Assembly (NCBI GenBank): GCA_965263035.1
Contig: OZ253580.1
Location: forward strand, 6,112,001 to 6,176,000
Length of the DNA stretch: 64,000 nucleotides
Origin: Acidobacteriota bacterium
Lineage (GTDB): Bacteria > Acidobacteriota > UBA6911 > RPQK01 > JAJDTT01
Reading direction: 5' to 3'
The first letter of the stretch is position 1, and each line of letters begins with the position of its first letter. Below the pieces are notes generated by a model. It did no database searches, was not told where the DNA came from, and saw only the letters and a list, made by a program, of their open reading frames with translations. Made by a program: the position numbers and the translations under genes. Shown in pieces: positions 34,345-64,000 of this stretch.

Positions 34345-34623
34345 GGCGCAGACTCGGGGAGCTCGTCCAAAAACCGGCTGGCCAAGCCGGGGGTCACCTG
34401 GTGCAACTCCAGCCTCTCATCCTCGCGCCAGGCGAGGAACCGCCCCACCTGGGTGGGCGTAGGCGGTCCGGGTGTGGGGATTGGAGAGCCGGACGGAGAA
34501 GAACTCATCGGCCGCGAAGCAGGCCGCCTTCCCGGCTCTCACGAGAACAGCCGGGAAGGCCCCTTCGAGGTCATTTCAGGAGAGCGAATCGGCGGTTTTC
34601 GGGAGGAGTTCCAAGTCCGCCAT
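34345..34623 (-). pseudogene. Tyrosine recombinase N-terminal remnant
   Basis: ATG 34623: MADLELLPKTADSLS*...AGKAACFAADEFFSVRLSNPHTRTAYA, frameshift, QVGRFLAW...LELHQVTPG; catalytic domain absent. Confidence 0.75.
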
Positions 34624-34629
34624 AAAAGA

Positions 34630-34652
34630 TACGTATAATATACTTTATCGTA
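34630..34652. other. B-type palindromic recombination-like site directly upstream of the recombinase remnant
   Basis: TACGTATAATATACTTTATCGTA; related sites at 39251, 44965, 45448, 50846. Confidence 0.65.
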
Positions 34653-34870
34653 ATCTATACCATGCTCCGGACCTTCTGATTTTGCGCGCCGGCCGATGTC
34701 CGGAGCCGTCCTCTCCTTCCCGCATCCGGTGATCCCACTGGGGTGAAAAACGAGGTCAGAGACCCATCCATTGAGTCGGTGGCACCGTTTACACTTCGGC
34801 CAGAAAGGATTCCCCCGCATCCCTGAATACTGTTGCCGACGCTACCGTCTACCTGGAGGAACCGTTCCAG
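34653..34870 (+). repeat. Conserved ~220-bp leader of LRR genes
   Basis: Aligned copy at 45470-45687 and 3' half at 51820-51927, ending CTGGAGGAACC..ATG. Confidence 0.85.
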
Positions 34871-37153
34871 ATGTCAGTCCACTTTCCGAAGCCCTCGCAT
34901 CTTAGCCGTCACTCCACGACTTCTCTAAGGGTCCTCGTTTTGAGCTTGGGCCTGCTGGCCACGCCAGAGGCAGCCACGGCTGAGATCGTCCCCGTCTGCG
35001 ACCGGACCCCAGAGGTGCGCGACGAGATCGTGAAGCTCGTGCCAGAAGTCAGCGATTGTGCCGATGTGACCGAGTCGCACCTAGCCGAGATTAGACGGGA
35101 TTTCTTTCACGGCGGCCTGGAGCGAGTATACGTCTTAGGGTTTCCCAGTACTCGCAGGCTTCCCCCGCCCCCACTCAGAGAGTTGAAAGTGGGCGATTTT
35201 TCTGGACTTTCTTCACTGCGCACACTCTATTTGGATCGCACTGGATTGATGACCCTGCCGGAAGAGATTTTCTCCGGCCTCTCCTCCCTGGAAGCTCTCC
35301 TCCTGGGTAACAATGGGCTGAGCACCCTGCCGGCGGAGGTCTTCTCCGGCCTCTCCTCCCTGGAGACGCTCTACCTGCATAACAATGGGCTGAGCACCCT
35401 GCCGGCGGAGGTCTTCTCCGGCCTCTCCTCCCTGGTATATTTCCGCCTGGATGGCAACCTGGCGGCTCCCCTACCTGTCAACGTTTCATTGGAGTGGGTT
35501 GATCCCGGCCGATTCCAGGCCAGAGCGCCAACAGGCGCGCCCTTTGAGATCCACCTTCCTATAACTGTAACCAACGGCATGCTTCACAGGGGGGCGTCCC
35601 ATCTCACGATTCCCGCAGGGCGGGAATCCAGCGACGTGCTTTCGGTATCTCGACAGCCCGGAACGACCTCGCCGGTCACCGTCGAGATTGCACAATTCCC
35701 GGAGAAACCTGTGCGCCACATCGGTTACGAGCTGGTCAGACCCTCTTTGCCCCTGACTTTACTGACACCGCTTTCTCTGGACTTCCCCCATTTCGCCAAC
35801 GGGGCGGCCATCACCTCCGAGTTGGTGATCGTGAATGTCGCGGCCACCCCCCTCCAGCCGGCCCTCTACTTCTTCGACAGAGAGGGAGACCTCATGGCCC
35901 CAGCATCCATGGTAGACGTCGGGGAAGACTGGTTCATCCGGTCCGACGGAGCCTTGACCGTGAGGAAGGAAATAGAGCCCCTGGGAGAGCTCACGATCTC
36001 GACCCACGGGCGAGGACCGTTGGTGACCGGCTCGGCGAGGGCCCTGGCCGACGGTCCCATAGGCGGGGTCTTGCGCTTTGACAGCCCGGATATCGGCGTC
36101 GCCGGGGTGGGAACGGGGTCCCCCTCACCCGACGCCATCTTCCCCGTGCGCCGCCAGGAATCCGGAATCAACACCGGGGCGGCGATTCGGAATCTGGGAG
36201 ACGATCCAGTGACCGTCCAATGCCAACTAATGCAAGATGGCCAGGTCTTGGAAGAGAGGGACATTCCCCTGGCCGGCGAGGGGCAGACCGCCCGGTTCAT
36301 CGACGAGTTGTTCCCTGCGACCGATACGTTGGACTTTGTGGGATCGGTGCGCTGCACCGAATCCGAAGGCGGCCTGTTCACCGGCGTGGCTTTGGAGATG
36401 GATTTCCAGAACCGGGTGTTCACCACCTTGCCTGTAGTCCCCGTTCCGCCGATGCGGACCCAGGATTACACGCAACTGCACTTCGCCCATTTTGCCAACG
36501 GTGCCTCCATCACTTCCGACCTGGTATTCGTGAACGTGGCCAACACGGCCGTGGCGCCGGCCATCTATTTTTACGATGGCTCAGGCCGTCTCATCGCCCC
36601 GGAAATGGTGGTGGACGTCGGGGAAGATCTCCAGGTCCGGATGGACGGATCTCTGACCGTTCAGGCGGACGTGGCCCCGCTGGGGGAACTCACGGTCTCC
36701 ACCCACGGCCGGGGGAATCTGGTGACCGGGTCGGTGAAAGTCATCGCCAATGGTCCCATCGGTGGATTCCTGCGCTTCGACAACCCCGAGATCGGAGTCG
36801 CGGGGGTCGGGGCCAGCGGGGCGGTCCAGGACGCGATCTTCCCGGCTCGACATCAGGCGGGAGGAATCCGCACGGGAGTGGCCATCCGCAATCTGAAGCC
36901 GGCCGCCATCGAAGTCAGCTGCCAACTGATGCAAAACGGCAGGGGTGTGGAAGAGAAGGAAATCCCTCTGTCCGGCAATGGGCAGACGGCCCAGTTCATC
37001 CACGAGTTGTTCACCAAGACCATCACAGCCGACTTTGTGGGATCGGTGCGCTGCACCGCCTCAGAGGACGGGAGGTTCACCGGATTGGCGCTGGAGATGG
37101 ACGAGGACAACCGCATCTTCACCACCTTGCCCGTGGTGCCGGTCCGGCGATGA
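34871..37153 (+). CDS. Secreted LRR protein (4 LRRs) + 2 copies of conserved C-terminal module
   Basis: Signal peptide, VCDRTP..C cap, LSSL..L.L..N.L..LP..F repeats, LDFPHFANG...FTTLPVVP x2. Confidence 0.88.
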   Translation: MSVHFPKPSHLSRHSTTSLRVLVLSLGLLATPEAATAEIVPVCDRTPEVRDEIVKLVPEVSDCADVTESHLAEIRRDFFHGGLERVYVLGFPSTRRLPPPPLRELKVGDFSGLSSLRTLYLDRTGLMTLPEEIFSGLSSLEALLLGNNGLSTLPAEVFSGLSSLETLYLHNNGLSTLPAEVFSGLSSLVYFRLDGNLAAPLPVNVSLEWVDPGRFQARAPTGAPFEIHLPITVTNGMLHRGASHLTIPAGRESSDVLSVSRQPGTTSPVTVEIAQFPEKPVRHIGYELVRPSLPLTLLTPLSLDFPHFANGAAITSELVIVNVAATPLQPALYFFDREGDLMAPASMVDVGEDWFIRSDGALTVRKEIEPLGELTISTHGRGPLVTGSARALADGPIGGVLRFDSPDIGVAGVGTGSPSPDAIFPVRRQESGINTGAAIRNLGDDPVTVQCQLMQDGQVLEERDIPLAGEGQTARFIDELFPATDTLDFVGSVRCTESEGGLFTGVALEMDFQNRVFTTLPVVPVPPMRTQDYTQLHFAHFANGASITSDLVFVNVANTAVAPAIYFYDGSGRLIAPEMVVDVGEDLQVRMDGSLTVQADVAPLGELTVSTHGRGNLVTGSVKVIANGPIGGFLRFDNPEIGVAGVGASGAVQDAIFPARHQAGGIRTGVAIRNLKPAAIEVSCQLMQNGRGVEEKEIPLSGNGQTAQFIHELFTKTITADFVGSVRCTASEDGRFTGLALEMDEDNRIFTTLPVVPVRR

Positions 37154-37192
37154 CCTGCCGGGAATAGCTGGAGTTGGCGACTCTCTTTAGGA

Positions 37193-37218
37193 CGTCCGTT
37201 AACTGAAATTATCGGACG
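37193..37218. other. A-type palindromic site
   Basis: CGTCCGTTAA-CTGAAA-TTATCGGACG. Confidence 0.75.
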
Positions 37219-37545
37219 GTCCCCCGGGAAAAGGGAGGATGTCGGGGGGGTGCGAATCAGCCCCAAGCTGCCCGAAAACATGGGTCAGAAGAAGACGGCT
37301 CGTCCCCGTCATTTTTCATCCCTCTTCGTCGCTGAGACTCAGGATCAGCAGCTCAGAAATGGCTGGAGTGGGCTCCATTCCAGCCGCGGGATGTCCGCTC
37401 GGATTTACTCCTCTGGCCAAGTCACGGACCCGATCTTCCCGAAACCGACGTCGTTGGCAGGCCAGACTTCGATGCGGCGAACGACCACCGACACTCAGCG
37501 CATGGCTCGATCGCAAAATGTGGAGAACGCCACTATCATTCGGCC

Positions 37546-39057
37546 ATGAGACAAATACTGCTAGCTGTATTCCTGCTGGCCCCGCTCGCCCGAGAGGTTC
37601 AGAGCAAGGACCAGACCGATCCACCCTATGCGGGCACCGTCTGGATCGACCCGGACATCATCACACCATCAGATCCGACTGCGCTCGTGAGCGTGACGGA
37701 TGCCGGACGGGGACAACGGACGATGTTCGACCTGCGGGTCAAGGACTGGATCGTGGTCAACGCCTATTTGTTCATGGCCCGATTTGATGATGGCCTGACC
37801 GCGGAGATTCAGGTCAACCCAGAGTTCGGCAGTGCATCGGACGCGATGGTGGAAGCAAGCAAATATGGGAGATCCATCGGCCAATTGCCGACGCTACTTC
37901 GAACCAATGTCGAGACGGTCTGGATCCATAAAGGAAATGCGCCTCTCGGGGGTGGAAACAACAGTATTCTCATCCATACAGATTTTCCGGACGAGTATTT
38001 GGAGGAGGGATTGGTCCACGAGGGGGCGCACACTTCCCTGGACCCACCCTGGATGGGGATTGTCAACGCCGTCGATTGGCGCGCCGCCCAGACGGCCGAT
38101 GATAACTTCATTTCCGACTACGCACGAGATCATCCGGACCGAGAAGACATCGCCGAGTCGTTCCTGCCGTACCTGGCTGTCCGATATCGTTCGGCTCGAA
38201 TCTCCCGATCTTACGAGCGGACAATATTGGAGACGATGCCGAATCGGATCGCTTACCTTGACCGACTTCTCCAGGCTCAATCGGACAACGCGTTGCATCC
38301 AATCACGTTGGACCTTCGACAGTATCTGAGCTTTGCGCATTTCGGGAATGGAGGGTCCATCACCTCGGACCTGGTGTTAGTGAACGTGGAGCCCTCGGCG
38401 ACTTACCCGGCCATCTACTTCTACGATCGAATGGGTGAACTCATCGACCCCGAATCGGTGGTGGACGTGACGGAAGATCTGGAAGTCCGGGAGGATGGAG
38501 CGTTGACCGCCCGGACGGGGATTGAGCCTCTGGGTGAACTGGTGATTTCGACCCATGGACGAGGGAAGTTGGTGACCGGATCGGTGACGGTGTTCTCCGA
38601 CATCGTGCGCTCTAATCTCTGGGGCGACAAAAACCGAGAGGACGCGGGCGGCGCGGCCCGCATCGGCGGGGTCCTGCGGTTCGACGCCCCGTCCCTGGGC
38701 GTGGCCGGCGTGGGGGCCAGTGCGCCCGTAAACGACGTCATTTTCCCGGCGCGCCGCCAAGAGGGCGGAATCAACACCGGAGCCGCAATCCGGAACCTGG
38801 GAGAGAACCCGATCGAAGTGAGTTGCCAATTGATGAAAAAAGGCGCGGTATTGGAGATGAAGGACATTTCACTGGCCGGTAACGGCCAGACGGCCAAGTT
38901 CATCCACGAGTTGTTCACCCAGACCGATACGTCCGATTTCGTCGGGTCGGTTCGTTGCACCGCTCCTGATGGTGAACGATTCACCGGAATCGCCCTGGAG
39001 TTGGATGATAGAAACCGGATCTTCACTACCTTGCCAGTGGTGCCCATCCAGCGATGA
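37546..39057 (+). CDS. Secreted zincin-like protein + 1 conserved C-terminal module
   Basis: Signal peptide, LVHEGAHT (HExxH), EDIAESF; FAHFGNG...FTTLPVVP. Confidence 0.8.
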   Translation: MRQILLAVFLLAPLAREVQSKDQTDPPYAGTVWIDPDIITPSDPTALVSVTDAGRGQRTMFDLRVKDWIVVNAYLFMARFDDGLTAEIQVNPEFGSASDAMVEASKYGRSIGQLPTLLRTNVETVWIHKGNAPLGGGNNSILIHTDFPDEYLEEGLVHEGAHTSLDPPWMGIVNAVDWRAAQTADDNFISDYARDHPDREDIAESFLPYLAVRYRSARISRSYERTILETMPNRIAYLDRLLQAQSDNALHPITLDLRQYLSFAHFGNGGSITSDLVLVNVEPSATYPAIYFYDRMGELIDPESVVDVTEDLEVREDGALTARTGIEPLGELVISTHGRGKLVTGSVTVFSDIVRSNLWGDKNREDAGGAARIGGVLRFDAPSLGVAGVGASAPVNDVIFPARRQEGGINTGAAIRNLGENPIEVSCQLMKKGAVLEMKDISLAGNGQTAKFIHELFTQTDTSDFVGSVRCTAPDGERFTGIALELDDRNRIFTTLPVVPIQR

Positions 39058-39250
39058 CCTGTCGAGAGTAACTGCAGACGGTGGTCAGAAGGCACTAGGA
39101 TGTTGTCTTCTGGATTTTGGAGGATGGGGAGTCGATAGCGATCGGTCAGAAAGCTGTTGATCCGGCCTTCTCAGGCGGAGGAAGGATCAGCCCCGAACTG
39201 GCCGGAAACATGGGCTAGAAGAAGAGGCCCAGACCCCTCTCGGAGGGTCC

Positions 39251-39281
39251 AGAGTACGATAATTGCACTTTATCGTACTCT
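39251..39281. other. B-type site, perfect 12-7-12 palindrome
   Basis: AGAGTACGATAA-TTGCACT-TTATCGTACTCT. Confidence 0.8.
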
Positions 39282-39490
39282 CCACCACGCTCCTGACTGC
39301 CTCGGGAGAGCGTCCCTCGGCATCGGTCTGGAAACCGCTGTCGCCTCTCTGGTGGACGTCGCCCGCCGGTACCGGTGGCCTGAGCCACCCCTTCGGCAAG
39401 TCGTTTCCGAGTTTTGGTCCCTGGGGCGGCGGGCTGGTATTCTCCAAGGCACGCCATGTCCACTCGTTCCAGGCGGCAGCAGGAGTCCGC

Positions 39491-42400
39491 TTGATCAGTC
39501 CTCTACTCGGTTCATTCTCGGTTCCGTTTTTTGCCTGGTGGCTGTTTTTCGTCCTGTCGCCACCGCAAACCGGCGGCCCCTCGTCAGAGCACGGGCGCCG
39601 GACGGACGACTCGATCGCACCTCAGGCGCAGGAACCGGGGGAGACGATTCTGTACTTCCCGGATTACGTGGATGGGGGCGGCTGGTCGGTGCAGCTGGTG
39701 CTCAGCAACGTCGACCCGGAGACCGCGGCCGAGGTTCGGGTGGATGTCTACGACCCGGACGGACAGCCGGTCCGGGATCTGTTCGATTCCGATTTGACGT
39801 TGGAAATCCCCTCACTGGGCAGTCGAGTCTTGAGAAGCGCCGGCTCCGGAGCCCTTCGGCGAGGGTGGATCGAGGTCCAGACCCGTTCGGCCGCAGTGAG
39901 TGGATTGTTGACCTACCGAGACACCCAATCGGGGATCGAAGTCGGCGTCAAACCCGTTGCGTTGGGACAACGGTTCGCTTTGTTCGTGGAGGAATCGCCG
40001 ACGGTCGGCGCCGGAGTCGCCGTGTACAAGACGGACGCCGCGGCCCGCGTCGAGCTTCGAATCCGCAACGAGGAAGGCCACGACCCCATGGAGGGAGGGG
40101 TCGTCCGCTGGGGGGATTTCCGCCAAGCGGCTCGGACGCTTCCGGAATGGTTCGATGTCCCCGGGGTCGACACGGAATTCCTGAGGGATTTTCGCGGCCT
40201 GTTGTTCCTGGAGACCGAGGACGATTCCCGGTTCGCCCCGCTGGGGTTGCGGTTCGGGAAGGGAACCTCTTCGCTTTCGGCGGTACCGGCGATCCGGACC
40301 CAGAGTCAGGAACCTCAAGAGGCGGCCCTGGTCTTTCCCGACTACGTGGATGGCGGCGGCTGGTCGGTGCAGTTGGTGCTCAGCAACGTCGACCCGGATG
40401 CTGCGGCCGAGGTTCGGGTGGATGTCTACGACCCGGACGGACAACCGGTCCGGAATCTGCTCGATTCCGATTTGACGTTCGAGGTTCCGAGCCAGGGCAG
40501 TCGAGTCTTGAGAAGTGCCGGCTCGGGCGCCATTCGGCGAGGTTGGATTCAGGTCGAGACCGATGCGGCCGCAGTCGGTGGACTGTTAACCTACCGAGAC
40601 GCCCGAACGGGGATCGAGGTCGGCGTCGAGCCCATCCGGTTGGGGAATGAATTCGCTCTGTTCGTGGAGGAATCGGAGACGATCGGGGCGGGTCTGGCCC
40701 TCTTCAACCCGGAGGCGTCATCCAGGATCGAACTGAGGCTCCGCGACGAGGAAGGCAACGATCCGTTGGACGGAGTGTACGTCCCCTGGAGAGACTTCCA
40801 CCAGGCGGCGCGCACACTCCCGGAATGGTTCGACGTCGAAGGCGTGGATACGGGATTTCTGAGGGACTTTCGCGGTCTCCTGTTCCTGCGAACGGAGGAC
40901 GAATCCGGGTTCGCCCCGCTGGGGCTGCGGTTCGGGAAGAGGTCCTCGTCGCTCTCGGCGGTGCCGGCGATTCGGATCCCGGAGGGAGGCGGGATCGACG
41001 GCGGCCAGGCCCCGCCCCCGACGGTGACGCTTTCGGCATCGCCGCCGTCGATCGATCGGGGCCAGAGCACGACGTTGACCTGGTCGTCCACGAATGCGGA
41101 GAGCGCCGAGATCACTCCGGACATCGGCGGGGTGCCGACTTCGGGCACGCGGAAGGTGTCGCCGAACGTGACCACGACCTACCGCATCACGGCGACGGGA
41201 GCCGACGGACAGACGGCGACGGCATCGGCGACGGTGACGGTGGCCGTTTCCGAGCGGGCGGCGCTGAGGGCGCTGTTCGATGCGCTGGGCGGATCGGGTT
41301 GGAGCCACAGTAACAACTGGCTGACGGACACTCCCCTGGGCGACTGGTACGGGGTCGAAGTCGATAGCCAGGGGCGGGTGATCGGACTGCGGATGGCGGT
41401 CTGGGTCGATACTGAAGACGGTGGAAGAGAAAAACTCGGGAACGGATTGACCGGGGTGATCCCGCCGGAACTGGGTTCGCTCCCCCACCTGAGGGTCCTG
41501 GATCTCAGTCATAACCGACTGGAGGGGCCGATCCCGGCGCAACTCGGGAGCCTCTCCAGCCTGCAGGTGCTGGACCTCAGTGGGAACCAGCTGACGGGCC
41601 CGATCCCGCCCGAACTGGGGAGCCTTTCCAACCTGCAGCGGCTGAACCTCGGGGGGAACCGGCTGACGGGCCCGATCCCGCCCGAACTCGGTTCGCTTTC
41701 CAATCTGCAGTGGCTGTTCCTCAGTGGGAACCAGCTGACGGGCCCGATCCCGCCCGAACTCGGTTCGCTTTCCAATCTGCAGTGGCTGTTCCTCAGTGGG
41801 AACCAGCTGACCGGTCCGATCCCGCCCAGTTTTTTGCAGCTTGAGCAACTAGGATATTTCTATTTCTCCGATAATTTGGGACTCTGCGCCCCCGGTACAA
41901 CCGGTTTCGTCGATTGGCTGAAAGGGATCGAGCAACACGACGGTCCGTACTGTAACCAGTCCGACGTGGCCGTGATCGAGTCCCTCTACCAAGCCACCGG
42001 CGGAGCGAATTGGACGAACTCCGACGGCTGGCTCGGGGAGGGCGCCGTGAGTGATTGGTACGGGATCCGAGCCGACTCCCTGGGACGGGTGACGGGTCTC
42101 GATCTGAGTGACAACGGACTGGAGGGCCGGGTTCCGGGCAACTTGGGCCAACTGTCGCAGATGACCGAGTTGCGGATCGGTGGCAACGCCCTTTCCGGCC
42201 GGTTGCCGCTCATCTTGACCCGCCTCCCTCTTCACGAGTTCCATTACGCGGACACCGAGTTGTGTGCTCCGACCGAGGCGTCGTTCCAGGCTTGGCTGAA
42301 CGCCATTCCGTCGCACGACGGAACCAACATGGATTGTGCGCCGCTCACGGACCGCGACATCCTCGTGTCGCTCTACGACGCAACTGGCGGGCCGGACTGG

Positions 42401-44788: not shown

Positions 44789-44833
44789 GAGGGACGGATC
44801 GTCCTCCACTCGGATAACAAACTCCGTAGACTG

Positions 44834-44987
44834 ACGTCCGTTAACTGAAATTGACGGACGTTCTCTGGGAAAAGGGAGGATGCCGGGGGGTGCGAATCAG
44901 CCCCAAGCCGACCGGAAACACGGGTCAGAAGAAGACGGCCTGTCCCCGTCAGGAGGGATCAGGATACGATAATTGCACTTTATCGTA
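44834..44987. other. Complete A-site / spacer / B-site module
   Basis: ACGTCCGTTAA-CTGAAA-TTGACGGACGT (44834-44861) and TACGATAA-TTGCACT-TTATCGTA (44965-44987). Confidence 0.8.
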
Positions 44988-50657: not shown

Positions 50658-50694
50658 GCAGCCGGGATTAGCTGGCGGGGCGATCTCTGGAGAA

Positions 50695-54948: not shown

Positions 54949-54974
54949 CGTCCGCTAATTGAAATTAACGGACG
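54949..54974. other. A-type site
   Basis: CGTCCGCTAA-TTGAAA-TTAACGGACG; sequence to the right is not the usual spacer. Confidence 0.7.
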
Positions 54975-55162
54975 TCGACCCTCTCCCACACCTGAATCGG
55001 AACCCTAAACACCGTAACCACTCTCGGTTTCAGTGAGCCCCTTAGCCCAAAAAAATCACATTTCTCGGTGTCGTGAAGATGAAGTCATTTCGGGAAACCA
55101 GTCGGGGAGAACCACGGACCCGCTCCGTGGGTCCCCGGTTCCCCAAGACAGGAGGAAGACCT

Positions 55163-55711: not shown

Positions 55712-56144
55712 GAGTGCGAGCCAAGTGAAATCGCCCTACCGTACATGAACGGAAACCACAGCGATGACTTGTCGAGAACAGTTCAGAGGGGAACCCGAGT
55801 GACCACTGGGCGCGGTCCGGCCGCTGGTGCAGAGGGTTTAGGCCGCCAACTCAATCAGTCGTTTCTTGTCCTGAGTTTCCCCCTGCAGTATTCTTGGTTT
55901 CCCGAAGGCGAGCCCGCCAAGTGTAGCAGCACCCGGCAGGCTCTAAGCCAACTCGACCTATGCCGGAGGAAGAGCCAGCTTGGCAGATATTCTATTCCAC
56001 CCCCCTCCCTGGTTTCATTCCGGCATAGGTCCCCTCATCGGAGTCAGGATCTTCCGACTGCGGAGAATGAAGTCCTCCAACCCGCGCCAAGCCCACTCCT
56101 AATTGGGCACACATGGATCCCGACCCATTAACGAGGGAGAAACC

Positions 56145-58518
56145 ATGACCACCTTTGAACAGACCGAAGGCAACCCCGTGTTTCGGTGCCGCTCCGGCTC
56201 GTGGGGAGGCGGATTTTTCCGAACGAGCATATTGCAAGACAAACTCGTCTCTTTCGTTTTGTCCTCGGCAGTGGGGTGCCTCACGGTCGTCTTGCTGCTG
56301 GCGGCGGCGCCCCCTTTGCAAGCCTGCGACGATGGTTGGACGGTGCCGAATCCCGAGAACAATCCCGGTCTGGTGGAGGACTGTAGAGTCCTTCTCGCTA
56401 TACGCGATGACTTGGCCGGGACCGGCTTCTTGAACTGGGAGTTTGGTTTGCCCATGGACCGCTGGGGCGGTATCCGCGTCTCGGGATCTCCCAGCCGCGT
56501 GCGGCAGTTGGTCCTGTTTGGGGACGACCGGCCAGGGTCGATTCCGTCGGGACTGGGTCGGCTGTCCCAACTGCAGACGTTGATGCTCTCTAGCCGGCAG
56601 CTGATGGGGCCGATTCCGCCGGAATTGGGACAACTGTCGAATCTGGAGGAGTTGAGCCTCTCCGGCGACCGGCTGGGATCGATTCCAGCCGAGTTGGGGC
56701 AGCTTTCCCGCCTCCGTCGGCTGGGACTCGTCGGCAATCAGTTAACGGGATCCATACCCGCCGAATTGGGACGGTTGTCCAATCTCCAGCGCTTACACCT
56801 CGCTGACAATCAGCTGACGGGGCCAATCCCGCCAGAACTAGGCCAACTGCTTCAGTTGAAGGCAATGACGCTTGACGACAATCAGCTCACGGGGCCGATA
56901 CCGCCCGAACTGGGGCAACTCTCTTCGTTGGCGGATCTTCACCTTCAGAACAATCAGTTGACGGGATCGATACCGGCCGAACTGGGACAGCTCTCTTCGC
57001 TGTTTGAATTACAACTCCAAAACAACGAGCTGTCAGGATCGATCCCGCCGGAGCTAGGGCAACTCTCCTCGTTGTTCGAGCTGGATCTCCAATACAACCA
57101 ACTCACGGGGCCGATACCGGCCGAACTGGGACGATTGTCCCAACTCCGGAGAGGATTATATCTCCACAGCAATGAACTGACAGGATCGATTCCGGCCGAG
57201 TTGGGGCAACTCTCCCAGCTGTGGCGCTTGCACCTCCAGAACAACGAGTTGACAGGATCGATTCCGGCCAAACTCGGGCAACTCTCCGAGTTACAGGAGT
57301 TCAGTTTCCGGGGCAACCGGCTGACGGGAGCGGTTCCCACCGAGTTGGGTCATTTGCCCGATGTGTACGTATTGAACTTGGCCGCGCGCCGGATCACCCC
57401 AGAACAAGTTAAGGTCACCTGGGATGATCCGGGTGACCCCAGTGCCAGTTACGAGTACCGGCTCGTGCTGCGGGATGAGAACCTGAACTATACGGTGACA
57501 GACTGGACCGAAATTGAAGATCCGGAGGCGACACTGGGTCCGGGCGAAGGAATCACCATCGAATGGATTTTGACGAACCTGCCAGCCGATCTCGATGTCG
57601 TCTCCGTCCGTTTGAGGGCGAAGAACGAGAACGGACCAAGTCCGCCAACATCGGCTCCAGTCGAACCCCTCCAGGTTTCCGAGGATGCGGATCTCCCCTA
57701 CTGCCGTTCGCTGTGGACGGGACGGGCGCGTTGCACCACCACTGCCGTCCTGCCACACGTCTTCATGGGACCTCTCGGCGAGGATCAGGCCCGAGCCGAA
57801 ATCCTTATTACCAACCGCAGCGGGTTTGTAGCTTGCGACCTGGCGCTGCTCTTTCACCAGGGAACTTCCGAAGCTCCGCAGGTATTGTTCGACAACGAGC
57901 CGCTCGAGGGGAACCTGTTCGAGGCCACTTTTTCCAGGAGAACTGCACGGATCCTGACCTTGACGTCGGATTCGGAAGAGCTGGTGGTCGGGGCAGTCTC
58001 GGTCTTCGTCCGCGCGCCCTGCTCGATCACCTCGTTCCAGATTCGGGGACGCTACCTCGTGGAAGAGTCGGATGAACGGGGATATCCAAGAGCTCTTTTC
58101 CGTTCCCGGCCAGTCTCCGCGGGAGTGGCTCGGAAATGGGGATTGTCAAGTCTTGACCGGAGTCTTCGGCCCGGGGCGAAATCTCGGTTTTGCCTCGGTG
58201 ACGACCGAACCGGGGCTTGGTGCTCCGGCCGGGACCCAACTCCATCTCCAGGCCTTCGATCTGGAGGGGAATCCCGTAGAGAGCCCACCCAGCATGGAGG
58301 TCTCCGGCGCACAGACCGCCTCCTTTCCCTGGAGCTTCCAGGAACCCACCATCCTCAAGATGTGCCTGGAGGTTCCGGACCCGGACAGTCAATTCCAGCT
58401 CTCGACCATCGCCATCGGCGTCGTCCAGAAGGGGGATAACGTGCAGTGGAGTGATGAACCCGCCGTGGAAGTTGAGCCATCAGATCACCCGTCGCCATGG
58501 CCGAACGTCGGTCCCTGA
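56145..58518 (+). pseudogene. Secreted plant-type LRR + FN3-like + divergent C-terminal module; frameshift near 58075
   Basis: LTGSIPAELGQLS repeats; VTWDDPG..YEYR; VLPHVFMG module continues in ORF 58072-58518. Confidence 0.8.
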
Positions 58519-59058: not shown

Positions 59059-59084
59059 CATCCGTTAACTGAAATTAACAGACG
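59059..59084. other. A-type site
   Basis: CATCCGTTAA-CTGAAA-TTAACAGACG followed by conserved spacer; downstream B site deleted near 59160. Confidence 0.75.
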
Positions 59085-59417: not shown

Positions 59418-62400
59418 TTGATCAATCCTCTACTCGGCTCATTCTCGAGTTCTTTTTTTGCCTGGTGGCTGTTTTTCGTTCTGTCGCCGCCGCAAGCCGG
59501 CGGCCCCCCGTCAGAGCAAGGTCACCCGACGGACGACTCAATTTCCCGTCAGGCGCAGGAACCGGGGGAGACGATTCTGTACTTCCCGGATTACGTGGAT
59601 GGGGGCGGATGGTCGGTGCAGTTGGTCCTCAGCAACGTCGACCCGGACGCCGCGGCCGAGGTCCTGGTGGAAGTCTACGACCCGGACGGGCAACCGATCC
59701 TGGATCTGTTCAATTCTGATTTGACGTTGGAGATTCCAGCGCTCGGCAGTCGCGTCTTGAGAAGCACCGGATCAGGGGCCATTCGGCGGGGTTGGATCCA
59801 GGCCGAGACCGATGCGGATACGATCAGTGGACTATTGGCCTACCGGAACGCCCAATCGGGGATCGAAGTCGGCGTCAAACCCGTCGAGTTGGGCCCGCAG
59901 TTCGCCTTGTTCGTTGAGGAATCGCCGACGGTCGGCGCCGGAGTCGCCGTTTACAAGCCGGACGCCTCGTCTCGCCTCGAGCTTCGAATCCGCGACGAGG
60001 ATGGGAGCGATCCCCTGGAGGGTGGGTTCGTCCCCTGGGGGGACTTCCACCAATCGGCGCTCACACTCCCGGAATGGTTCGCAGTGGAAGGAGTCGATAC
60101 GGGATTCCTGACGGACTTTCGCGGGCTGTTGTTCCTGGAGACCGAGGACGAGTCTGAGTTCGCCCCGCTCGGTCTTCGGTTCGGGAAGCGGACCTCCTCG
60201 CTCTCGGCGGTGCCGGCGATCCGGACCCAAAGCGAGGAACCTCAAGAGACGCTTCTGGTCTTTCCCGACTACGTGGACGGAGGTGGGTGGTCGGTGCAGC
60301 TGGCGCTGACCAACGTCGATCCGGACGCCGCGGTCGAGGTTCGGGTTGAAGTCTATGACCCGGACGGACAGCCCGTCCTGGATCTGTTCGATTCCGATTT
60401 GACGTTCGAGATCCCGTCCCAGGGCAGTCGAGTCTTGAAGAGTGCCGGCTCCGGAGCCATTCGGCGGGGTTGGATCCAGGTCGGGACCGATGCGCCCACG
60501 ATCAGTGGACTATTGACCTACCGGCACTCCCAATCGGGGATCGAAGTCGGCGTCGAGCCCGCCCGGTTGGGGAAGCAATTCGCTCTGTTCGTGGAGGAAT
60601 CGGGAACCGTCGGGGCGGGACTGGCCCTCTTCAAACCAGATGCAGAATCCAGGATCGATCTGAGAATCCGCGACGAGGAGGGAAACGACCCGTTGAACGG
60701 GGTGTTCCTCCCCTGGAGAGACTTCCACCAAGCGGCTCGCACGCTCCCGGAATGGTTCGATGTGCACGGAGTGGATGCGGGATTTCTGGCAGACTTTCGA
60801 GGCCTCCTGTTCCTGCGCACCGAGGACGAGTCTCCGTTCGCCCCGCTCGGGCTGCGGTTCGGGAAGGAGACCTCCTCGCTCTCGGCAGTGCCGGCGATCG
60901 GGATCCCGGACGGAGGCGGGATCGACGACGGCCGCGCTCCCCCTCCCACGGTGACGCTGTCAGCATCGCCGAAGTCGATCGATCGGGGCCAGAGCACGAC
61001 GTTGACCTGGTCGTCCACGAATGCGGAAAACGCCGAGATCACCCCGGACATCGGCAGGGTGCCGACATCCGGGTCTCGGACGGTGTCGCCGAGCGTCACC
61101 ACGACCTACCGCATCACGGTGACGGGAGCGGACGGACAGACAGCCCCGGCGGCGGTCACGGTGACGGTGGCCGTTTCCGAGCGGGCGGCGCTGGTCGCGC
61201 TGTACGAAGCGCTGGGCGGATCGATGTGGACCCACAGCGAGAACTGGCTGACGGACGCCCCGCTGGGGGAGTGGTACGGGGTCGAGGTCGATATCCAGGG
61301 CCGGGTGATCGGACTGCAATTATTCACAGTGATTGAGACTGAAGAGGGGCACCGAATAAAAATAGGGATCGGATTGACCGGCGTGCTCCCGCCGGAACTG
61401 GGTTCGCTTTTCCACCTGAGGGTCCTGGATCTCAGTGAGAACCAAGTGGAGGGGCCGATCCCGCCGGAACTGGGCGCGCTCGGCCAACTGGAGTTCCTGT
61501 CTCTCGGGGGGAACAATCTGACAGGGGAGATTCCAGCGGAGTTGGGCGCGCTTGCCCAACTGAAGACCCTGTATCTCAGGTTGAATCAGCTGACGGGGGC
61601 GATCCCACCGGAGCTGGGCGCGCTCGCCGAACTGAGGACCCTGAATCTTGGTGAGAACCAGCTGACGGGAGAGATCCCGGTTGAGCTGGGCGCGCTCGCC
61701 CAACTGGAGCTCCTGTCTCTCGCCGGGAACCAGCTGGCGGGAGAGATCCCGCCAAGTTTCCTGAATCTGGACCAACTCAACAACTTTAACTTTCACGATC
61801 TTAGAGCCGCAGGTCTTTGCGTCCCCGGTACGTCCGATTTCGTCACATGGCTGCAAGGGATGGAACGATACAATGGATCGTACTGTAACGAGTCTGACGG
61901 GGCCGTGCTCGACTACCTGTACCGAAGTACCGGCGGAGAGGATTGGACAAACTCTGACGGCTGGGTTGAGGATGGCGCATTGGGTGAACGGTACGGGGTT
62001 CAGACCGACTCGCTGGGACGCGTAACAGGACTCGACCTGAGCGGCAACGGACTTGCGGGGCGGTTCCCGGGTAGCTTGCTTCGCCTGGGCCAGTTGACTG
62101 AATTGCGGGTCGACGGAAACGCCCTCTCTGGCCGGTTACCGTGGTCTTTGACCCGTCTGTCCCTGCAAGAATTCCACTACGCGAACTCGGATCTGTGTGT
62201 CCCGAACGAGGCATCGTTCCGCTCTTGGTTGGACACCATTCCCTCTCACGAAGGCACAGGAATGACGTGCGGACCGCCTTCGAGCCGAGATTTCCTGATG
62301 GCGCTGTACGATATGACCGACGGACCGAACTGGGCTCAGGACGACCAGTGGGGAGCCCCTGCTCCACTGAAGGATTGGCACGGGGTCCGGGTAGACGAAA

Positions 62401-64000
62401 GCGGTCAAGTGACCGCGTTGATTCTCGGATGGAACCGACTGGAGGGTGAGATCCCGGCGGCACTCCTCTCGCTCTCCAAGCTGAGGCACCTGAATCTCAG
62501 TGGAAACAACCTGACAGGGGAGATCCAGGTGGAACTAAGCCGCCTCTCCAACCTGGAAGTGCTGTATCTCGATGGAAACGAACTGACGGGTTCTGTGCCC
62601 CCGGAACTCGGTCAGATGCGCACTCTAAAAACGTTGGGCCTGACGAACAACACTCGGTTGTCGGGGGACCTGCCAGCCAGCTTGACTTCTCTTAGCCGGC
62701 TCGAAGCGTTTCTGGCGGGAGGCACCGATCTCTGCGCTCCCGCCGACGCCAGATTCCGGAACTGGTTGGACGGTGTCTGGAAGCGGCAGATCGTCCCCTG
62801 CTCCCGTGATGGTCTGCCGAAGGCGTATCTGACCCAAGCCGTCCAGTCGCAGGAGTTCCCGGTTCCGCTGGTCGCTGGGGAGAAAGCCCTGCTCCGGGTG
62901 TTCGTAACGTCCGAACGCGACACTGACGTCACTCTCCCACCGGTGCAAGCGACATTCTATCGGGATGGAGCGCCGCCGCACGTGGTGAACATCCCAGGAA
63001 AATCAGCTTCCATCCCGAACGAAGTGGAGGAGGGAGACCTGACCGACTCCGTCAACGCCGAGATCCCTGACTGGGTAATTCAGCCGGGGCTCGAGATGGT
63101 CGTCGACATCGACCCGCAGGGGACACTGGATTCCAGCCTGGGTGTGACGAAGAGGATCCCGGAGAGTGGTCGTTTGGCAGTCGAAGTTCAGATGATGCCC
63201 GACTTTCATTTGACGGTGATCCCCCTTTTGTGGCGTCAGAACCCCGATTCATCGACCGTGGACATGGCCAAGGCCATGGAGCAGGATCCTGAAAGCCACG
63301 AATTGCTCCAGGACACGCGGACTCTTCTGCCCATCAGCAAGCTTGAAGTTACGGCCCACGCTCCCGTATTGACCTCAACCAACAATACCGCTGAGTTGGA
63401 ACTCGAATTGAGAGTAATTCGTGCCATGGAGGGCTCCAGTCGCTATTACCTGGGCATGATAACAGGAGCATTTGATGGTATAGCCGGAAGGGCCTCCCTT
63501 CCCGGCTGGACGGCTGTCACGACACCCAATTCGGAAGTGATCGCGCACGAACTCGGACACAACCTGAATCTCCGGCACGCGCTGTGCGGCGGTACTCCAA
63601 ATGCGGATCCCTCGTTTCCCGACACCTACGGGTCCATCGGCACTTGGGGATACGACTTCCGCGAGGGCGGCCGACTTGTGCCGCCGCAATGGCGAGATCT
63701 GATGGTCTATTGCGACGTCAAATGGATCACCAATTATCATTTCACCAAATGGATCGGCGATTATCATTTCACCAACGCGCTCCGTTACCGCTTGCAGACG
63801 GCAACCCGAAGTGAACTGTCCTCCCTGGTCGCCGCGCCGGCGAATGCTCTTATGCTCTGGGGCGGCGTGGACTCTGCGGGGGTTCCTTTCCTGGAACCAG
63901 CGTTCGTCGTAGATGCTCCCGCGTCGCTGCCGCGGTCCACTGGTGATTATAAGATCACCGGACGAACCTCCGCCGGTGGCGAGTTGTTCTCACTGAGCTT
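59418..64000 (+). CDS. Paralogue of 39491-44788 (modules + Ig + LRR + M66-like peptidase), runs off window
   Basis: TTG start after AGGAG; start and window end in the same frame with collinear protein similarity; AHELGHNLNLRH; 27-bp duplication near 63720-63775. Confidence 0.88.
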   Translation, partial: MINPLLGSFSSSFFAWWLFFVLSPPQAGGPPSEQGHPTDDSISRQAQEPGETILYFPDYVDGGGWSVQLVLSNVDPDAAAEVLVEVYDPDGQPILDLFNSDLTLEIPALGSRVLRSTGSGAIRRGWIQAETDADTISGLLAYRNAQSGIEVGVKPVELGPQFALFVEESPTVGAGVAVYKPDASSRLELRIRDEDGSDPLEGGFVPWGDFHQSALTLPEWFAVEGVDTGFLTDFRGLLFLETEDESEFAPLGLRFGKRTSSLSAVPAIRTQSEEPQETLLVFPDYVDGGGWSVQLALTNVDPDAAVEVRVEVYDPDGQPVLDLFDSDLTFEIPSQGSRVLKSAGSGAIRRGWIQVGTDAPTISGLLTYRHSQSGIEVGVEPARLGKQFALFVEESGTVGAGLALFKPDAESRIDLRIRDEEGNDPLNGVFLPWRDFHQAARTLPEWFDVHGVDAGFLADFRGLLFLRTEDESPFAPLGLRFGKETSSLSAVPAIGIPDGGGIDDGRAPPPTVTLSASPKSIDRGQSTTLTWSSTNAENAEITPDIGRVPTSGSRTVSPSVTTTYRITVTGADGQTAPAAVTVTVAVSERAALVALYEALGGSMWTHSENWLTDAPLGEWYGVEVDIQGRVIGLQLFTVIETEEGHRIKIGIGLTGVLPPELGSLFHLRVLDLSENQVEGPIPPELGALGQLEFLSLGGNNLTGEIPAELGALAQLKTLYLRLNQLTGAIPPELGALAELRTLNLGENQLTGEIPVELGALAQLELLSLAGNQLAGEIPPSFLNLDQLNNFNFHDLRAAGLCVPGTSDFVTWLQGMERYNGSYCNESDGAVLDYLYRSTGGEDWTNSDGWVEDGALGERYGVQTDSLGRVTGLDLSGNGLAGRFPGSLLRLGQLTELRVDGNALSGRLPWSLTRLSLQEFHYANSDLCVPNEASFRSWLDTIPSHEGTGMTCGPPSSRDFLMALYDMTDGPNWAQDDQWGAPAPLKDWHGVRVDESGQVTALILGWNRLEGEIPAALLSLSKLRHLNLSGNNLTGEIQVELSRLSNLEVLYLDGNELTGSVPPELGQMRTLKTLGLTNNTRLSGDLPASLTSLSRLEAFLAGGTDLCAPADARFRNWLDGVWKRQIVPCSRDGLPKAYLTQAVQSQEFPVPLVAGEKALLRVFVTSERDTDVTLPPVQATFYRDGAPPHVVNIPGKSASIPNEVEEGDLTDSVNAEIPDWVIQPGLEMVVDIDPQGTLDSSLGVTKRIPESGRLAVEVQMMPDFHLTVIPLLWRQNPDSSTVDMAKAMEQDPESHELLQDTRTLLPISKLEVTAHAPVLTSTNNTAELELELRVIRAMEGSSRYYLGMITGAFDGIAGRASLPGWTAVTTPNSEVIAHELGHNLNLRHALCGGTPNADPSFPDTYGSIGTWGYDFREGGRLVPPQWRDLMVYCDVKWITNYHFTKWIGDYHFTNALRYRLQTATRSELSSLVAAPANALMLWGGVDSAGVPFLEPAFVVDAPASLPRSTGDYKITGRTSAGGELFSLS

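Follow-up and report, generated by a model that had tools for sequence, protein, structure and literature searches.

To our knowledge, among bacterial platforms for storing and reshuffling gene cassettes, only integrons are well understood. Their operation depends on a specialised integrase and on attC sites folded as single strands, and integron arrays can outlast a working integrase, CALIN elements being an example. Among other tyrosine recombinase systems, loxP and difSL adjoin the genes of their own recombinases, Cre and XerS. The pdif modules of Acinetobacter plasmids and the IMEX arrays at dif are bounded by Xer-type sites whose 6-bp spacer lies between an inner TAA and TTA; they use host XerC/XerD, tandem arrays are built at one site, and pdif orientation alternates. 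Tycheposons, like other integrative islands grown by tandem accretion, carry a tyrosine recombinase at one end, tandem cargo and decayed recombinase fragments, and empty sites are found in related strains. A full-text literature search, taken at the level of its result listings, returned integrons, Xer systems and unrelated mobile elements only.

We analysed a window of 64,000 nucleotides (contig OZ253580.1) from the genome of an Acidobacteriota bacterium, which an initial annotation had read as containing a recombinase-shuffled cassette array of integron or pdif type. Our computations partly support this reading, four of the checks proposed for it having come out in its favour, with the integron/pdif comparison holding as an analogy of architecture only. 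On balance, we lean towards the view that the B-type palindromes described below are cognate double-stranded core sites of a multi-copy Xer-like recombinase family and that arrays have been rebuilt through them. At the level of sequence, the locus points to new integron-like gene shuffling.

Organization of the array and its cargo

The array is headed by a divergent fragment of an Xer-like tyrosine recombinase gene, annotated initially as a pseudogene and confirmed as such on the minus strand from 34623 to 34335. It encodes residues 1–96 of 326, is disrupted by one TGA, one frameshift and a truncation, and matches an intact paralogue with 74% identity in two frames (tblastn). A site termed B' (TACGTATAATATACTTTATCGTA, 34630–34652) lies 6 nt from its ATG, close to the 7 bp first reported. 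B' and all features that follow are on the plus strand. The first gene, g1 (34871–37153), encodes a 760-aa LRR protein (Pfam LRR_8, E 9e-19) whose C-terminus holds two copies of an unnamed repeat of ~233 aa, with repeat families D2, D4 and D5. Behind it lies a site of the second type, A (37194–37217), with a spacer truncated at about +117 and without B (profile positions 1–118). The next gene, g2 (37546–39057, 503 aa), has no Pfam family, and a protein atlas search gave no usable match for it. In its 3' unit, A is decayed, while the second half of the spacer and a B1 site are kept (profile positions 53–154 at 39176–39277); this B1 (TACGATAATTGCACTTTATCGTA, 39255–39277) is an exact match.

A large LRR/PKD protein with a marginal peptidase M66 match is encoded by g3 (39263–44788), an ORF listed from a TTG, with the true start probably at an ATG near 39457. 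It is followed by a complete unit (44836–44987) of A (44836–44859), a 105-bp spacer and B1 (44965–44987), and then by a 478-bp segment (44990–45469) that is 96% identical to genome positions 2102899–2102423 and ends in a hybrid B site (45449–45469). Downstream lie g4 (45688–48732), encoding a 1014-aa LRR protein (LRR_8, E 2e-73), and g5 (49158–50657), whose 499-aa product bears the common C-terminal repeat and has no Pfam family. The unit behind g5 (50696–50868) consists of A with 3 mismatches (50696–50719), a 126-bp spacer and a B2-type site (TACAATAAGATCAACTTATCGTA, 50846–50868). A perfect A site (51750–51773), its partial spacer fused to the leader of g6 and without B, precedes g6 itself (51928–54909, a 993-aa LRR protein). 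The next A site (54950–54973) has the spacer TTGAAA and is followed by a second leader type without unit spacer or B. The cassette behind it (55073–58439), comprising a 212-aa ORF and g7 (a 778-aa LRR protein), shares 88–90% identity with the cassette that comes first after the recombinase at genome 6.02 Mb. The last A site in the window (59060–59083) has a truncated spacer, and g8 (59418–64000), encoding an LRR/PKD protein, runs off the window. The array goes on for ~36 kb, across the linearised contig start to genome ~14,285.

Cassette genes are very large and have leaders of their own (180–440 bp). Regarding the proposed LRR/peptidase cargo, the LRR assignment was borne out by Pfam in 6 of the 8 large ORFs tested, while the peptidase M66 matches were marginal (21.5 and 15.3 bits; cut-off 20.6). 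Most array cargo consists of LRR proteins; TPR, LuxR-like, Calx-beta, Slr4-like and NACHT genes also occur.

Two classes of palindromic sites

A sites were searched in the window with the pattern GTCCGTTAA-N6-TTAACGGAC, a 9-6-9 palindrome, allowing up to 3 mismatches. All six A sites reported initially were recovered, at 37194, 44836, 50696, 51750, 54950 and 59060 (1–2 nt higher than first given), and all six lie on the plus strand, as had been claimed. By comparison, 100 shuffles yielded no match. In a genome scan with at most 2 mismatches, the pattern matched 17 places and the reversed control pattern none. The A spacer is CTGAAA in five of the six window sites and TTGAAA in the other; over 25 sites these counts are 23 and 2. 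Altered letters were found at 2/150 spacer positions versus at least 33/400 arm positions. The letters directly 3' of A read GTTCTCTGGGAAAAGGG.

The repeated unit had been described as A, a spacer of ~105 bp and B. This held at 44836/44965 (105 bp); the spacer at 50696/50846 measured 126 bp, and the other units were incomplete. A complete spacer and B follow A at only 2 of the 6 window A sites; of the others, 37194, 51750 and 59060 belong to truncated units and 54950 is a solo A.

The B1 pattern TACGATAA-N7-TTATCGTA matched the window exactly at 39255 and 44965, with 1 mismatch at 50846 and with 3 mismatches at 34630, giving 4 matches versus 0.02 expected by chance. Four of the five B sites of the initial annotation were thus recovered; the one placed at 39251 is real but starts at 39255, and the one at 45448 falls outside the pattern and belongs to a different B subclass (CGGGTAA-CGTACT-TTACCGTA, 45449–45469). 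B sites have an 8-6/7-8 geometry, nCGnTAA arms in inverted orientation flanking an asymmetric 6–7 bp spacer that varies by subclass (TATACT, TGCACT or TTGCACT, CGTACT, GATCAAC) and is identical inside the B1 subclass. Inverted arms around an asymmetric 6–8 bp spacer form the core architecture of lox/FRT-type sites, here with spacers that differ among B subclasses. Classical tyrosine recombinases require identical overlap regions; because the subclasses differ in spacer, exchange between B' and B1 would probably be inefficient.

A and B are both self-palindromic, and neither is an inverted copy of the other. They are alike in arm pattern and 9-6-9 geometry, but the A spacer is different and nearly invariant. 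We read A as a second, non-cross-reacting site class that marks cassette 3' ends.

Genome-wide distribution and orientation

Across the genome, ~10 clusters contain 26 A sites, ~20 B sites and, whole or as fragments, 11 recombinase genes. The window array is the largest (~66 kb), and many of its units are decayed. Instead of palindromes upstream of unrelated single genes genome-wide, we found arrays of uniform orientation, most of which have a divergent recombinase gene, or a fragment of one, at their head. Within one array, every site is oriented alike and opposite to the recombinase, the sole exception being one convergent array at 2.10 Mb. In the window array, 15/15 sites downstream of B' lie on the strand opposite to the recombinase; in relatives, the sites found 5' of the recombinase are all co-oriented. 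Two distant homologue loci (L092 and L093) have a second, inverted site.

A recombinase family with a site at its start codon

Six intact copies and five fragments of the recombinase are present in the genome. NCBIfam XerC/XerD models scored best (115 bits), and the closest solved structure was XerD (1a0p, E 1.7e-13). The scores lay below the cut-offs of the Xer families (XerC 115.8/335, XerD 115.4/330, XerS 32/267 and XerA 89/220 bits) and of the IntI models (TIGR02249, 63.3 versus 265 bits; PRK15417, 29 versus 435). R173, K202, H275, R278, H301 and Y310 are invariant in 11/11 aligned copies, a set that we read as the putative catalytic residues. The recombinase is under purifying selection (dN/dS 0.16–0.30 for intact clade-1 copies). 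A Cre-like recombinase near an A site at genome 5660618 was also considered and dropped, its 9 paralogues being unlinked to A sites.

Intact homologues with a B-type site upstream were present in this genome, elsewhere in its genus and in further phyla. A site lies beside the recombinase ATG in 8 of the 9 copies in this genome that keep the N-terminus, in 12/14 cases from same-genus genomes, and at 17/21 loci across genome contigs (plus one half site), among them loci from Terriglobia, Bryobacterales, Nitrospinota, Vicinamibacteraceae, Gemmatimonadota and Acidimicrobiia MAGs. Among metagenome loci the count was 7/18, all in homologues of at least 43% identity. The distance from palindrome to ATG is 3–9 bp in nearly every copy. 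The two arms shift symmetrically with recombinase clade (GGACGATAA/TTATCGTCC, TTTGATAA/TTATCAAA, GTGTGATAA/TTATCACAC, ACGGTAA/TTACCG), as expected for the enzyme's own site, while the inner TAA/TTA (or GATAA/TTATC) and a 6-bp spacer of type YRYACT stay constant across clades. Most homologues outside the genus have one gene-adjacent site and no array, so in these the site could serve resolution or autoregulation only. At E 1e-40 or better, the family takes in at least 3582 protein clusters, labelled just "XerD" or "tyrosine-type recombinase".

Homology breakpoints and variable array content

Homology between units had been claimed to switch at the sites. We found 20 of 183 BLAST endpoint clusters within 35 bp of a site, compared with 4.4 expected. 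Sites are themselves islands of conservation, which this excess partly reflects, and the related genomes are not independent of one another. Window positions 44834–44989 match 2.108 Mb at 98% identity, and from 44990 the partner becomes 2.1029 Mb, at 96%. The unit at 44836 itself is 98% identical to genome 2108011–2107856, the homology spanning A-2 to B1+24. One end of the deletion at 44989/44990 lies 2 nt beyond the B1 right arm and the other in non-site DNA. At the A site at 37194, the left flank matches an A-like site at genome 14262 and the right flank matches the A at 44836. The hybrid B at 45449–45469 has a left flank, arm and spacer of clade-3 type and a right flank of B1/B' type, with the inner right arm still of the left partner's type. 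Both site clades are found with either a recombinase gene or a spacer as left neighbour, the right flank being unchanged.

For comparison between species, arrays were anchored at a common flanking dioxygenase gene. Array content differs at this gene, with junctions at A sites. The array is absent in G005 and consists of a single cassette in G007; different genes are found in G003 and G002, and G000 has 15 sites over >48 kb. The orthologous arrays of G003 and G002 contain LRR genes, and their sites are B' alone, without further A/B units (G003), and B' plus one A (G002). Homology between G002 and G000 stops at the final base of an A site, and between two G007 copies of another locus it resumes at A-3. 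A truncated recombinase fragment matching that of the window adjoins the flanking gene in G007, G003 and G002 too. The window array's own recombinase has been dead since before the species split, and only the six intact copies found at other places in the genome could supply any activity.

A cassette at 3.14 Mb is absent from the empty sites of G002 and G003 and matches a cassette from a different G007 locus at 96% identity, its flanks reaching only 90%. Its left end is a remnant of an IS1380-type element and its right end lies ~70–110 bp past A; against the empty sites of G002 and G003, no att-type junction was readable.

In metagenome data, one 2874-nt contig from run X1 joins two non-adjacent cassettes at an A site, aligning to 44494–44860 (ending at A) and, after 211 unaligned letters, to 52000–54298. 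Neither a circular cassette nor a clean empty A/B junction was found in assembled Logan contigs, where rare junctions escape view. Other joints were set aside. At 34657>44837 (X2, X3) and 44989>51750 (X2), the shorter side measured just 22–31 letters, and these joints probably come from other loci with conserved sites. Joints at 37059, 38483, 48121 and similar positions reflect paralogue mapping within the repeated C-terminal domain.

Under the interpretation we favour, each recombinase gene would carry its own core site 3–9 bp before the start codon, and in this genus sites would have come to lie between genes, mostly LRR-coding. Recombinase dimers would bind two direct-repeat sites of one class, and strand exchange in the spacer would delete or insert the block between them. 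Exchange between arrays would swap site-adjacent content, so that arrays would be rebuilt gradually. That the enzyme binds these sites, where it cuts, that circles form as intermediates, what A does and that the system is active today are all inferred.

A further-reaching interpretation, which we put forward tentatively, is that these arrays are a double-stranded DNA counterpart of integrons: Xer-like recombinases with their own 9-6-9 site may have built the ~10 arrays by natural cassette exchange, diversifying an LRR repertoire. Every gene would be bracketed by a 5' B-class and a 3' A-class site with different spacers, permitting fixed-orientation excision, insertion or swap, as in engineered RMCE with heterospecific lox sites. 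The outcome would be a diversified repertoire of secreted or surface LRR proteins.

Alternative explanations

The alternative that survives best, though we consider it unlikely, is that A and B act as cis-regulatory DNA elements within a single, expanding gene family. A would then form a terminator-like hairpin after each gene and B an operator or -10 region ahead of the following one, also present in the recombinase promoter; arrays would have grown by tandem or dispersed duplication, and mosaics would stem from homologous recombination or gene conversion from conserved islands. The placement of the sites suits such roles, A lying 39–48 bp past the stop codons of g1, g3, g5 and g6 and B ~180–240 bp ahead of the next start codon. 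The region right of B is conserved in a promoter-like manner (35 bp, TCTAAnCCACGcCCCTGAC, plus a further motif, CGGTGAGCCC-N-AAAATCAC). B' includes a perfect TATAAT and could thus act as a promoter or operator; GATAAT and TACAAT occur in B1 and B2. A consensus scan of 34300–54000, however, recognised none of four A sites as an intrinsic terminator (G+C-rich hairpin plus T run) and none of five B sites as a sigma-70 promoter; terminator-like matches numbered 22 versus 17.3 expected, none of them an A site, and promoter-like sites 4 versus 4.2. The A spacer is also better conserved than the arms, an uncommon pattern in operators and terminator loops. The predominance of one cargo family, LRR proteins, agrees with regulatory elements, but the non-LRR cargo types do not. 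Some homology boundaries fall outside the cores (~27 bp before A, or ~70–110 bp after A), and ~24 bp of identity about suffices for homologous exchange, both of which count in favour of this alternative. Against it, a like site stands beside recombinase genes in other phyla with no LRR genes or arrays nearby, and its arms co-vary with recombinase clade.

Somewhat less probable again is that small integrative elements accreted in tandem to form the arrays, the cassettes being dead autonomous elements rather than passive ones of integron type. An ancestral circle of B, leader, cargo gene, A and recombinase would have integrated into the preceding B, and redundant recombinase genes would have been deleted later. 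The recombinase gene at genome 5.708 Mb fits this scheme, lying exactly between A (100 bp past its stop) and B (at its ATG), as do the five recombinase fragments alongside six intact copies and the end of mutual homology among recombinase loci at the stop codon. Compared with the empty sites in G002, G003 and G005, the block of recombinase fragment, B', cassette and A is inserted. Across nine related genomes, which are not independent, more intact recombinases go with more unit matches, and the family occurs across many phyla at 57–69% identity, a spread that suggests horizontal transfer. Accretion with later deletion is opposed by the spacer, which we compared as a possible remnant of a deleted recombinase: all 36 Smith-Waterman scores of the 105-bp spacer against six recombinase modules stayed within shuffle range. 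Nor was an element with two clean matching end sites found, the left end at 3.14 Mb being masked by the IS1380-type remnant.

It is improbable that the ~155-bp A-spacer-B unit is a non-autonomous MITE- or REP-like repeat spread without a tyrosine recombinase. The unit does occur in 27 copies or part-copies confined to this genus (nhmmer), begins abruptly at A-2 or A-3, and is found far from any recombinase gene at 3.14, 4.27, 5.17 and 5.97 Mb. Yet no target-site duplication or terminal inverted repeats were seen at the units, A and B also occur apart from each other, orientation is fixed relative to genes and recombinase, and the B part is common to the site at the recombinase ATG.

Least credible of all is a structured RNA (a leader, small RNA or processing signal) in which A and B act as hairpins, for although each could form a hairpin of 8–9 bp and the A loop is conserved, RNAalifold on 12 units from 4 genomes gave -0.81 kcal/mol and 4 pairs with neither hairpin predicted, Rfam had no match inside the array (its sole window match being a group II intron at 3271–3493), arm changes are one-sided in almost all of 33 A variants, and hybrid B sites with mismatched arms persist. 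The unit signal resides in DNA rather than RNA. A small ORF in the spacer was likewise rejected on inspection by eye, the 33-codon ATG...TAA of one unit being out of frame or absent in others.

Comparison with known systems

If B-type sites are indeed the recombinase's own cores, these arrays would be a second cassette platform, made from an ordinary Xer-like recombinase and lox-like duplex sites, and such platforms would have evolved repeatedly. This would explain hypervariable LRR gene islands in a major, poorly studied phylum and assign a function to a recombinase family that is very large and unnamed. It would also supply new recombinase/site pairs, with spacers that are apparently non-cross-reacting, for genome engineering.

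The array resembles an integron in that a divergent tyrosine recombinase with an adjacent site, in an attI-like position, heads a co-oriented array, a recombination-type element lies behind each gene, and content varies between related genomes. It differs in its recombinase, which is not IntI (63.3 versus 265 bits), and in an inter-gene unit without an attC hairpin fold or R''/R' pairing. The sites here are short self-palindromic double-stranded cores, each genome has several recombinase copies and arrays, and the genes are very large with leaders of their own. As in Cre/loxP and XerS/difSL, a simple two-domain tyrosine recombinase has, directly next to its gene, a site made of inverted arms and an asymmetric spacer. 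The geometry is 9-6-9, compared with 13-8-13 for loxP and 11-6-11 for dif, and many sites per replicon lie between cargo genes, with many recombinase paralogues. Dimer resolution through Xer/dif uses one terminus site per replicon, versus 26 A and ~20 B here; such a role could account for the homologues with one site in other phyla, though it leaves the arrays unexplained. Like pdif modules and IMEX, the array consists of discrete gene modules bounded by Xer-type sites with inner TAA/TTA; unlike them, it has direct repeats, a dedicated multi-copy recombinase family and two alternating site classes. The array shares with tycheposons a recombinase at one end, tandem cargo, decayed recombinase fragments and empty sites in relatives. 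Tycheposon sites are the 3' parts of tRNA genes, whereas dedicated palindromes stand here at the recombinase start codon. Shufflons, finally, have inverted sites, while the arrays of the window and of the genus are built of direct repeats.

Sites and units in the window and genome

We scanned the window with the A pattern, a 9-6-9 palindrome (GTCCGTTAA-CTGAAA-TTAACGGAC), and with the B pattern of the second palindrome class. With ≤3 mismatches, the A pattern matched at 37194, 44836, 50696, 51750, 54950 and 59060, recovering all six A sites proposed in the initial annotation; all six were on the + strand, five carrying the spacer CTGAAA and one TTGAAA, and 100 shuffles yielded 0 matches. The A and B sites have the 9-6-9 geometry and the arm pattern (CGnTAA) in common and differ in the spacer. 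The B pattern was exact at 39255 and 44965, with 1 mismatch at 50846 and 3 mismatches at 34630 (expected by chance, 0.02). These are four of the five B sites listed initially, but the fifth, near 45448, fell outside the pattern and belongs to a related B subclass (45449-45469, CGGGTAA-CGTACT-TTACCGTA). A near-consensus sigma-70 promoter (TTGACA, 16 nt, AATACT; 10 of 12 positions) lies on the + strand at 45418-45445, ends 3 nt before this hybrid B site and is directed into the leader of g4, the fourth of the window cassette genes (g1-g8). The unit of trailer, A, ~105 bp, B and leader described earlier was complete at 44836-44987 and 50696-50868, but the remaining four A sites were followed by a truncated spacer or a different leader.

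The genome to which the window belongs (G000) is a single contig of 6.198 Mb with 62% G+C. It contained 26 oriented A sites (≤4 mismatches), approximately 20 B-type sites and 27 unit copies or part-copies (nhmmer), many units being decayed. The A/B sites fell in approximately 10 clusters, at 0.16, 2.09-2.11, 2.91, 3.14, 3.68-3.69, 5.17, 5.22-5.25, 5.55, 5.66, 5.71, 6.02-6.04 and 6.146-6.198 Mb, and the last ran on across the contig start to ~14.3 kb. The A and B sites of any one array were all oriented alike, with the recombinase gene or fragment opposite; the sole exception was a second, convergent array at 2.10-2.108 Mb, without its own recombinase. The unit was present in six of the eight other genomes of the genus, and a search of 32 genomes from 21 other genera of the order found it in none. 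In relatives, sites 5' of the recombinase were co-oriented in every case found. Outside the genus, most recombinase homologues had one site and no array, and two homologue loci had a second, inverted site. In these two distant loci, from Nitrospinota and Vicinamibacteraceae MAGs (L092, sites at 463 and 1919; L093, 9889 and 19033), the two sites stand on either side of the recombinase gene, which is the layout of an invertible segment.

The recombinase family and its adjoining B-type site

The divergent recombinase pseudogene claimed beside the array proved to be real. It runs from 34623 to 34335 on the - strand, corresponds to residues 1-96 of a 326-aa protein, is interrupted by one TGA and one frameshift, and has its ATG 6 nt from the B-type site at 34630 (B'). 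Using an intact 326-aa paralogue (genome 5655989-5656966) as tblastn query, we found six intact copies in G000, four in what we call clade 1 (85-100% identity) and two in clade 3 (61-62%; one at 5708243-5709214), together with one frameshifted copy and five fragments, the window's included. Two domains make up this simple tyrosine recombinase, Pfam Phage_integrase and an N-terminal SAM-like domain; its nearest solved structure is XerD 1a0p (E 1.7e-13). Residues R173, K202, H275, R278, H301 and Y310, which we read as the putative catalytic residues, were unchanged in 11 of 11 aligned copies. The dN/dS among clade 1 recombinases was 0.16-0.30, indicating that selection maintains the intact copies. 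Among 8000 candidates scored, the family comprised at least 3582 protein clusters at E 1e-40 or better, named only 'XerD' or 'tyrosine-type recombinase'. At the 3.14, 2.09 and 5.54 Mb arrays, recombinase genes are cut short by an IS1380-type remnant (DDE_Tnp_1_4 transposase, 470 aa). The genome also carries a second, unrelated Cre-like tyrosine recombinase family (L072, genome 5660871-5661875, - strand; 10 genome copies, 32-38% identity), one copy of which lies 245 bp behind an A site, beside a NACHT ATPase gene.

Intact recombinase homologues with a B site upstream, which the initial annotation had named as a check, were found in G000, in the genus and in other phyla. In eight of the nine G000 copies with the N-terminus kept, a B-type site lay 4-7 nt ahead of the ATG, the ninth having a site of subclass B1 170 bp distant. 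A gene-adjacent B-type site was likewise found in 12 of 14 copies in same-genus genomes and in 17 of 21 loci from genome_contigs, plus one half site; these loci include homologues of 57-69% identity from Terriglobia, Bryobacterales, Nitrospinota, Vicinamibacteraceae, Gemmatimonadota, 'Deltaproteobacteria' and Acidimicrobiia MAGs. In metagenome loci it was present in 7 of 18, all seven among homologues at ≥43% identity and none among those at ≤41%. The site arms differed symmetrically between recombinase clades (TACGATAA-CATACT-TTATCGTA, GGACGATAA-CATACT-TTATCGTCC, TTTGATAA-TGTCCT-TTATCAAA, GTGTGATAA-CATCCT-TTATCACAC and ACGGTAA-CGTACT-TTACCG), and all variants kept the inner TAA/TTA and a 6-bp spacer ending in ...ACT/CCT. 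Since a dimer-type site co-varies with one neighbouring gene across phyla, the gene-adjacent palindrome is best read as the putative own site of the neighbouring recombinase. Similarity among recombinase loci ended at the stop codon; on the other side it crossed the site into the leader common to the cassette genes. The A/B sites are real, specific and tied to the recombinase family whose own site they resemble.

Homology breakpoints and mosaic cassettes

In the main array, 20 of 183 BLAST alignment endpoint clusters lay within 35 bp of a site compared to 4.4 expected (binomial p 2e-8), an excess that comes partly from the sites being conserved islands. Partner switches say more than this excess. 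Window 44834-44989 was 98% identical to genome 2108011-2107856, and from 44990 the partner switched to 2102899-2102423 (96% identity). At the site at 45449, the left flank, arm and spacer were of the clade-3 type found at 2.10 Mb and the right flank was of the B1/B' type; the 2.10 and 2.91 Mb copies had common sequence only rightwards from GGTAACGTACTTT. Each site clade occurred in one version with the recombinase gene at the left and one with the unit spacer, with the same right flank. To its left, the A site at 37194 matched a degenerate A at genome position 14262; to its right it matched the A at 44836, the switch falling at A+17. Entire cassettes were also found again in other arrays: window 55033-58518 was 88-90% identical to 6021011-6024569, where it is the cassette next to another recombinase and the first of its array, and genome 6192483-6193687 matched 5708233-5706972 at 88%. 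The claim that homology switches at the sites holds for several partner switches in or near them, but some boundaries lay outside, ~27 bp before A or ~70-110 bp after A. The 44989/44990 deletion had one end 2 nt beyond the B1 arm and the other in non-site sequence, and the spacers differed among the B subclasses.

Array content in related genomes

All nine genomes of the genus have the dioxygenase gene that flanks the array on its left (window 33115-34251). G007, G003 and G002 also share the truncated recombinase fragment with its adjoining B', and the recombinase was therefore dead before these species split. Array content differed between related genomes at this same flanking gene: G005 had no array and passed directly into the conserved right flank, G007 had one cassette with an A site at its end, G003 and G002 had other LRR genes with few recognisable sites, and G000 had 15 sites over >48 kb. 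Homology between G002 and G000 stopped at the last base of the A behind the g3 orthologue. In G005 (L166), where the site is empty, ~400 bp within the 560 bases next to the dioxygenase gene consist of a short repeat, GGGGACAGTCCCGATTCC, and its variants, resembling a REP-type element. In G000, the counterpart of the right flank of the ancestral locus is now at 5.70 Mb, indicating a large rearrangement with one end in or beside the array. In G007, G003, G002 and G005, the dioxygenase gene adjoins the genes that in G000 lie at 5705593 downward; in G000 they are ~440 kb apart and inverted. At the 3.14 Mb locus, G002 and G003 had empty sites, the two G007 copies measured 1.85 versus 9.1 kb with homology back at A-3, and the G000 cassette had 96% identity to one from a different G007 locus, with flanks at 90%.

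Read evidence was taken from assembled contigs of public runs, in which rare junctions are invisible and no circular or excision junctions were seen. In one contig of run X1 (2874 nt, depth 19), letters 1-364 aligned to 44494-44860 (g3 end and A site) and letters 576-2874 to 52000-54298 in g6. The 211 intervening letters had no alignment at ≥90% identity; the window has 226 nt between the A at 51750 and 52000. The contig would fit a relative with one A site between g3 and a directly following g6.

Cargo and neighbouring elements

The array had been described as LRR/peptidase genes; LRR proteins were confirmed in six of eight large window ORFs tested, but the peptidase M66 matches were marginal. 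Genes between sites mostly encoded LRR proteins, 327-2397 aa long, and in some of these PKD, subtilase or marginal M66 domains were also present. The remaining cargo included one TPR, one Calx-beta and one Slr4-like protein, a LuxR-type regulator and a NACHT ATPase, as well as several ORFs that matched no family. The cargo is putatively secreted, judging by eye from hydrophobic N-termini, and a role in host interaction is conjecture. Long runs of 72-nt (24-residue) LRR repeats (35193-35443, 41408-43126, 46019-46983, 52291-53190, 56792-57359 and 61335-61706) are at most 90% identical within a gene and could vary in repeat number independently of the sites. An unnamed C-terminal domain of ~233 aa (699 nt) occurs in one or two copies in g1, g2, g4, g5 and g6 (35782-37129, 38326-39033, 47361-48708, 49985-50633 and 53541-54885), with no Pfam family and no protein-atlas match. 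An IS605-type OrfB/TnpB-like ORF (32039-33115, + strand; Pfam OrfB_IS605, E 1e-8), probably a remnant, overlaps the start of the dioxygenase-like gene. Just past the window, the array is broken by two IS families (genome 6191182-6192408 and 6196512-6198070), one with ~15 genome copies (DDE_3 transposase) and the other with ~11.

Site constancy and alternative explanations

RNAalifold on 12 units from four genomes gave no conserved fold (-0.81 kcal/mol, four pairs), and neither palindrome was predicted as a hairpin. Rfam had no match in the array. Its sole window match was a group II intron (domains D1-D4, 3271-3493, - strand; RF02005, 165 bits, E 7e-48), far upstream. Of the arm changes seen across 33 distinct A variants, nearly all were one-sided. 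An arms-only scan gave 25 good A sites, with the spacer CTGAAA in 23 and TTGAAA in 2; changed letters numbered 2 of 150 in the spacer versus at least 33 of 400 in the arms. A spacer more constant than its arms fits the need of strand exchange between partner sites, and such constancy is unexpected for the loop of a terminator or the spacer of an operator.

We lean towards site-specific recombination, at B sites and probably also at A sites, as the process that built the arrays and is still remodelling them; the window array would then be large and partly fossil, and served in trans. Observations that sit poorly with this reading are the spacer differences among the B subclasses, the ends of the 44989/44990 deletion, the boundaries away from the sites, the many decayed units and the single-site homologues outside the genus. 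A live but unlikely rival is that the sites are purely regulatory and that exchange proceeds by homologous recombination: B' contains a perfect TATAAT and may act as a promoter or operator, but a consensus scan of 34300-54000 scored none of the four A sites there as a terminator and none of the five B sites as a sigma-70 promoter. Tandem accretion of once-autonomous elements seems less plausible still. An origin of the unit spacer between A and B from a lost recombinase gene was tested and rejected.

Comparison with known systems

At the level of abstracts, the literature yielded no description of such a recombinase/site system. The recombinase scored highest against the NCBIfam models XerC and XerD, but its 115 bits fell well short of their cut-offs (~330); the IntI model scored 63 bits against a cut-off of 265. 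An integron- or pdif-like system had been suggested initially. Membership was not borne out, as the IntI and attC tests failed for the integron, the family cut-offs for Xer and the orientation test for pdif, but by analogy of architecture the array system would work like an integron or like lox-based cassette exchange, without being a member of either.
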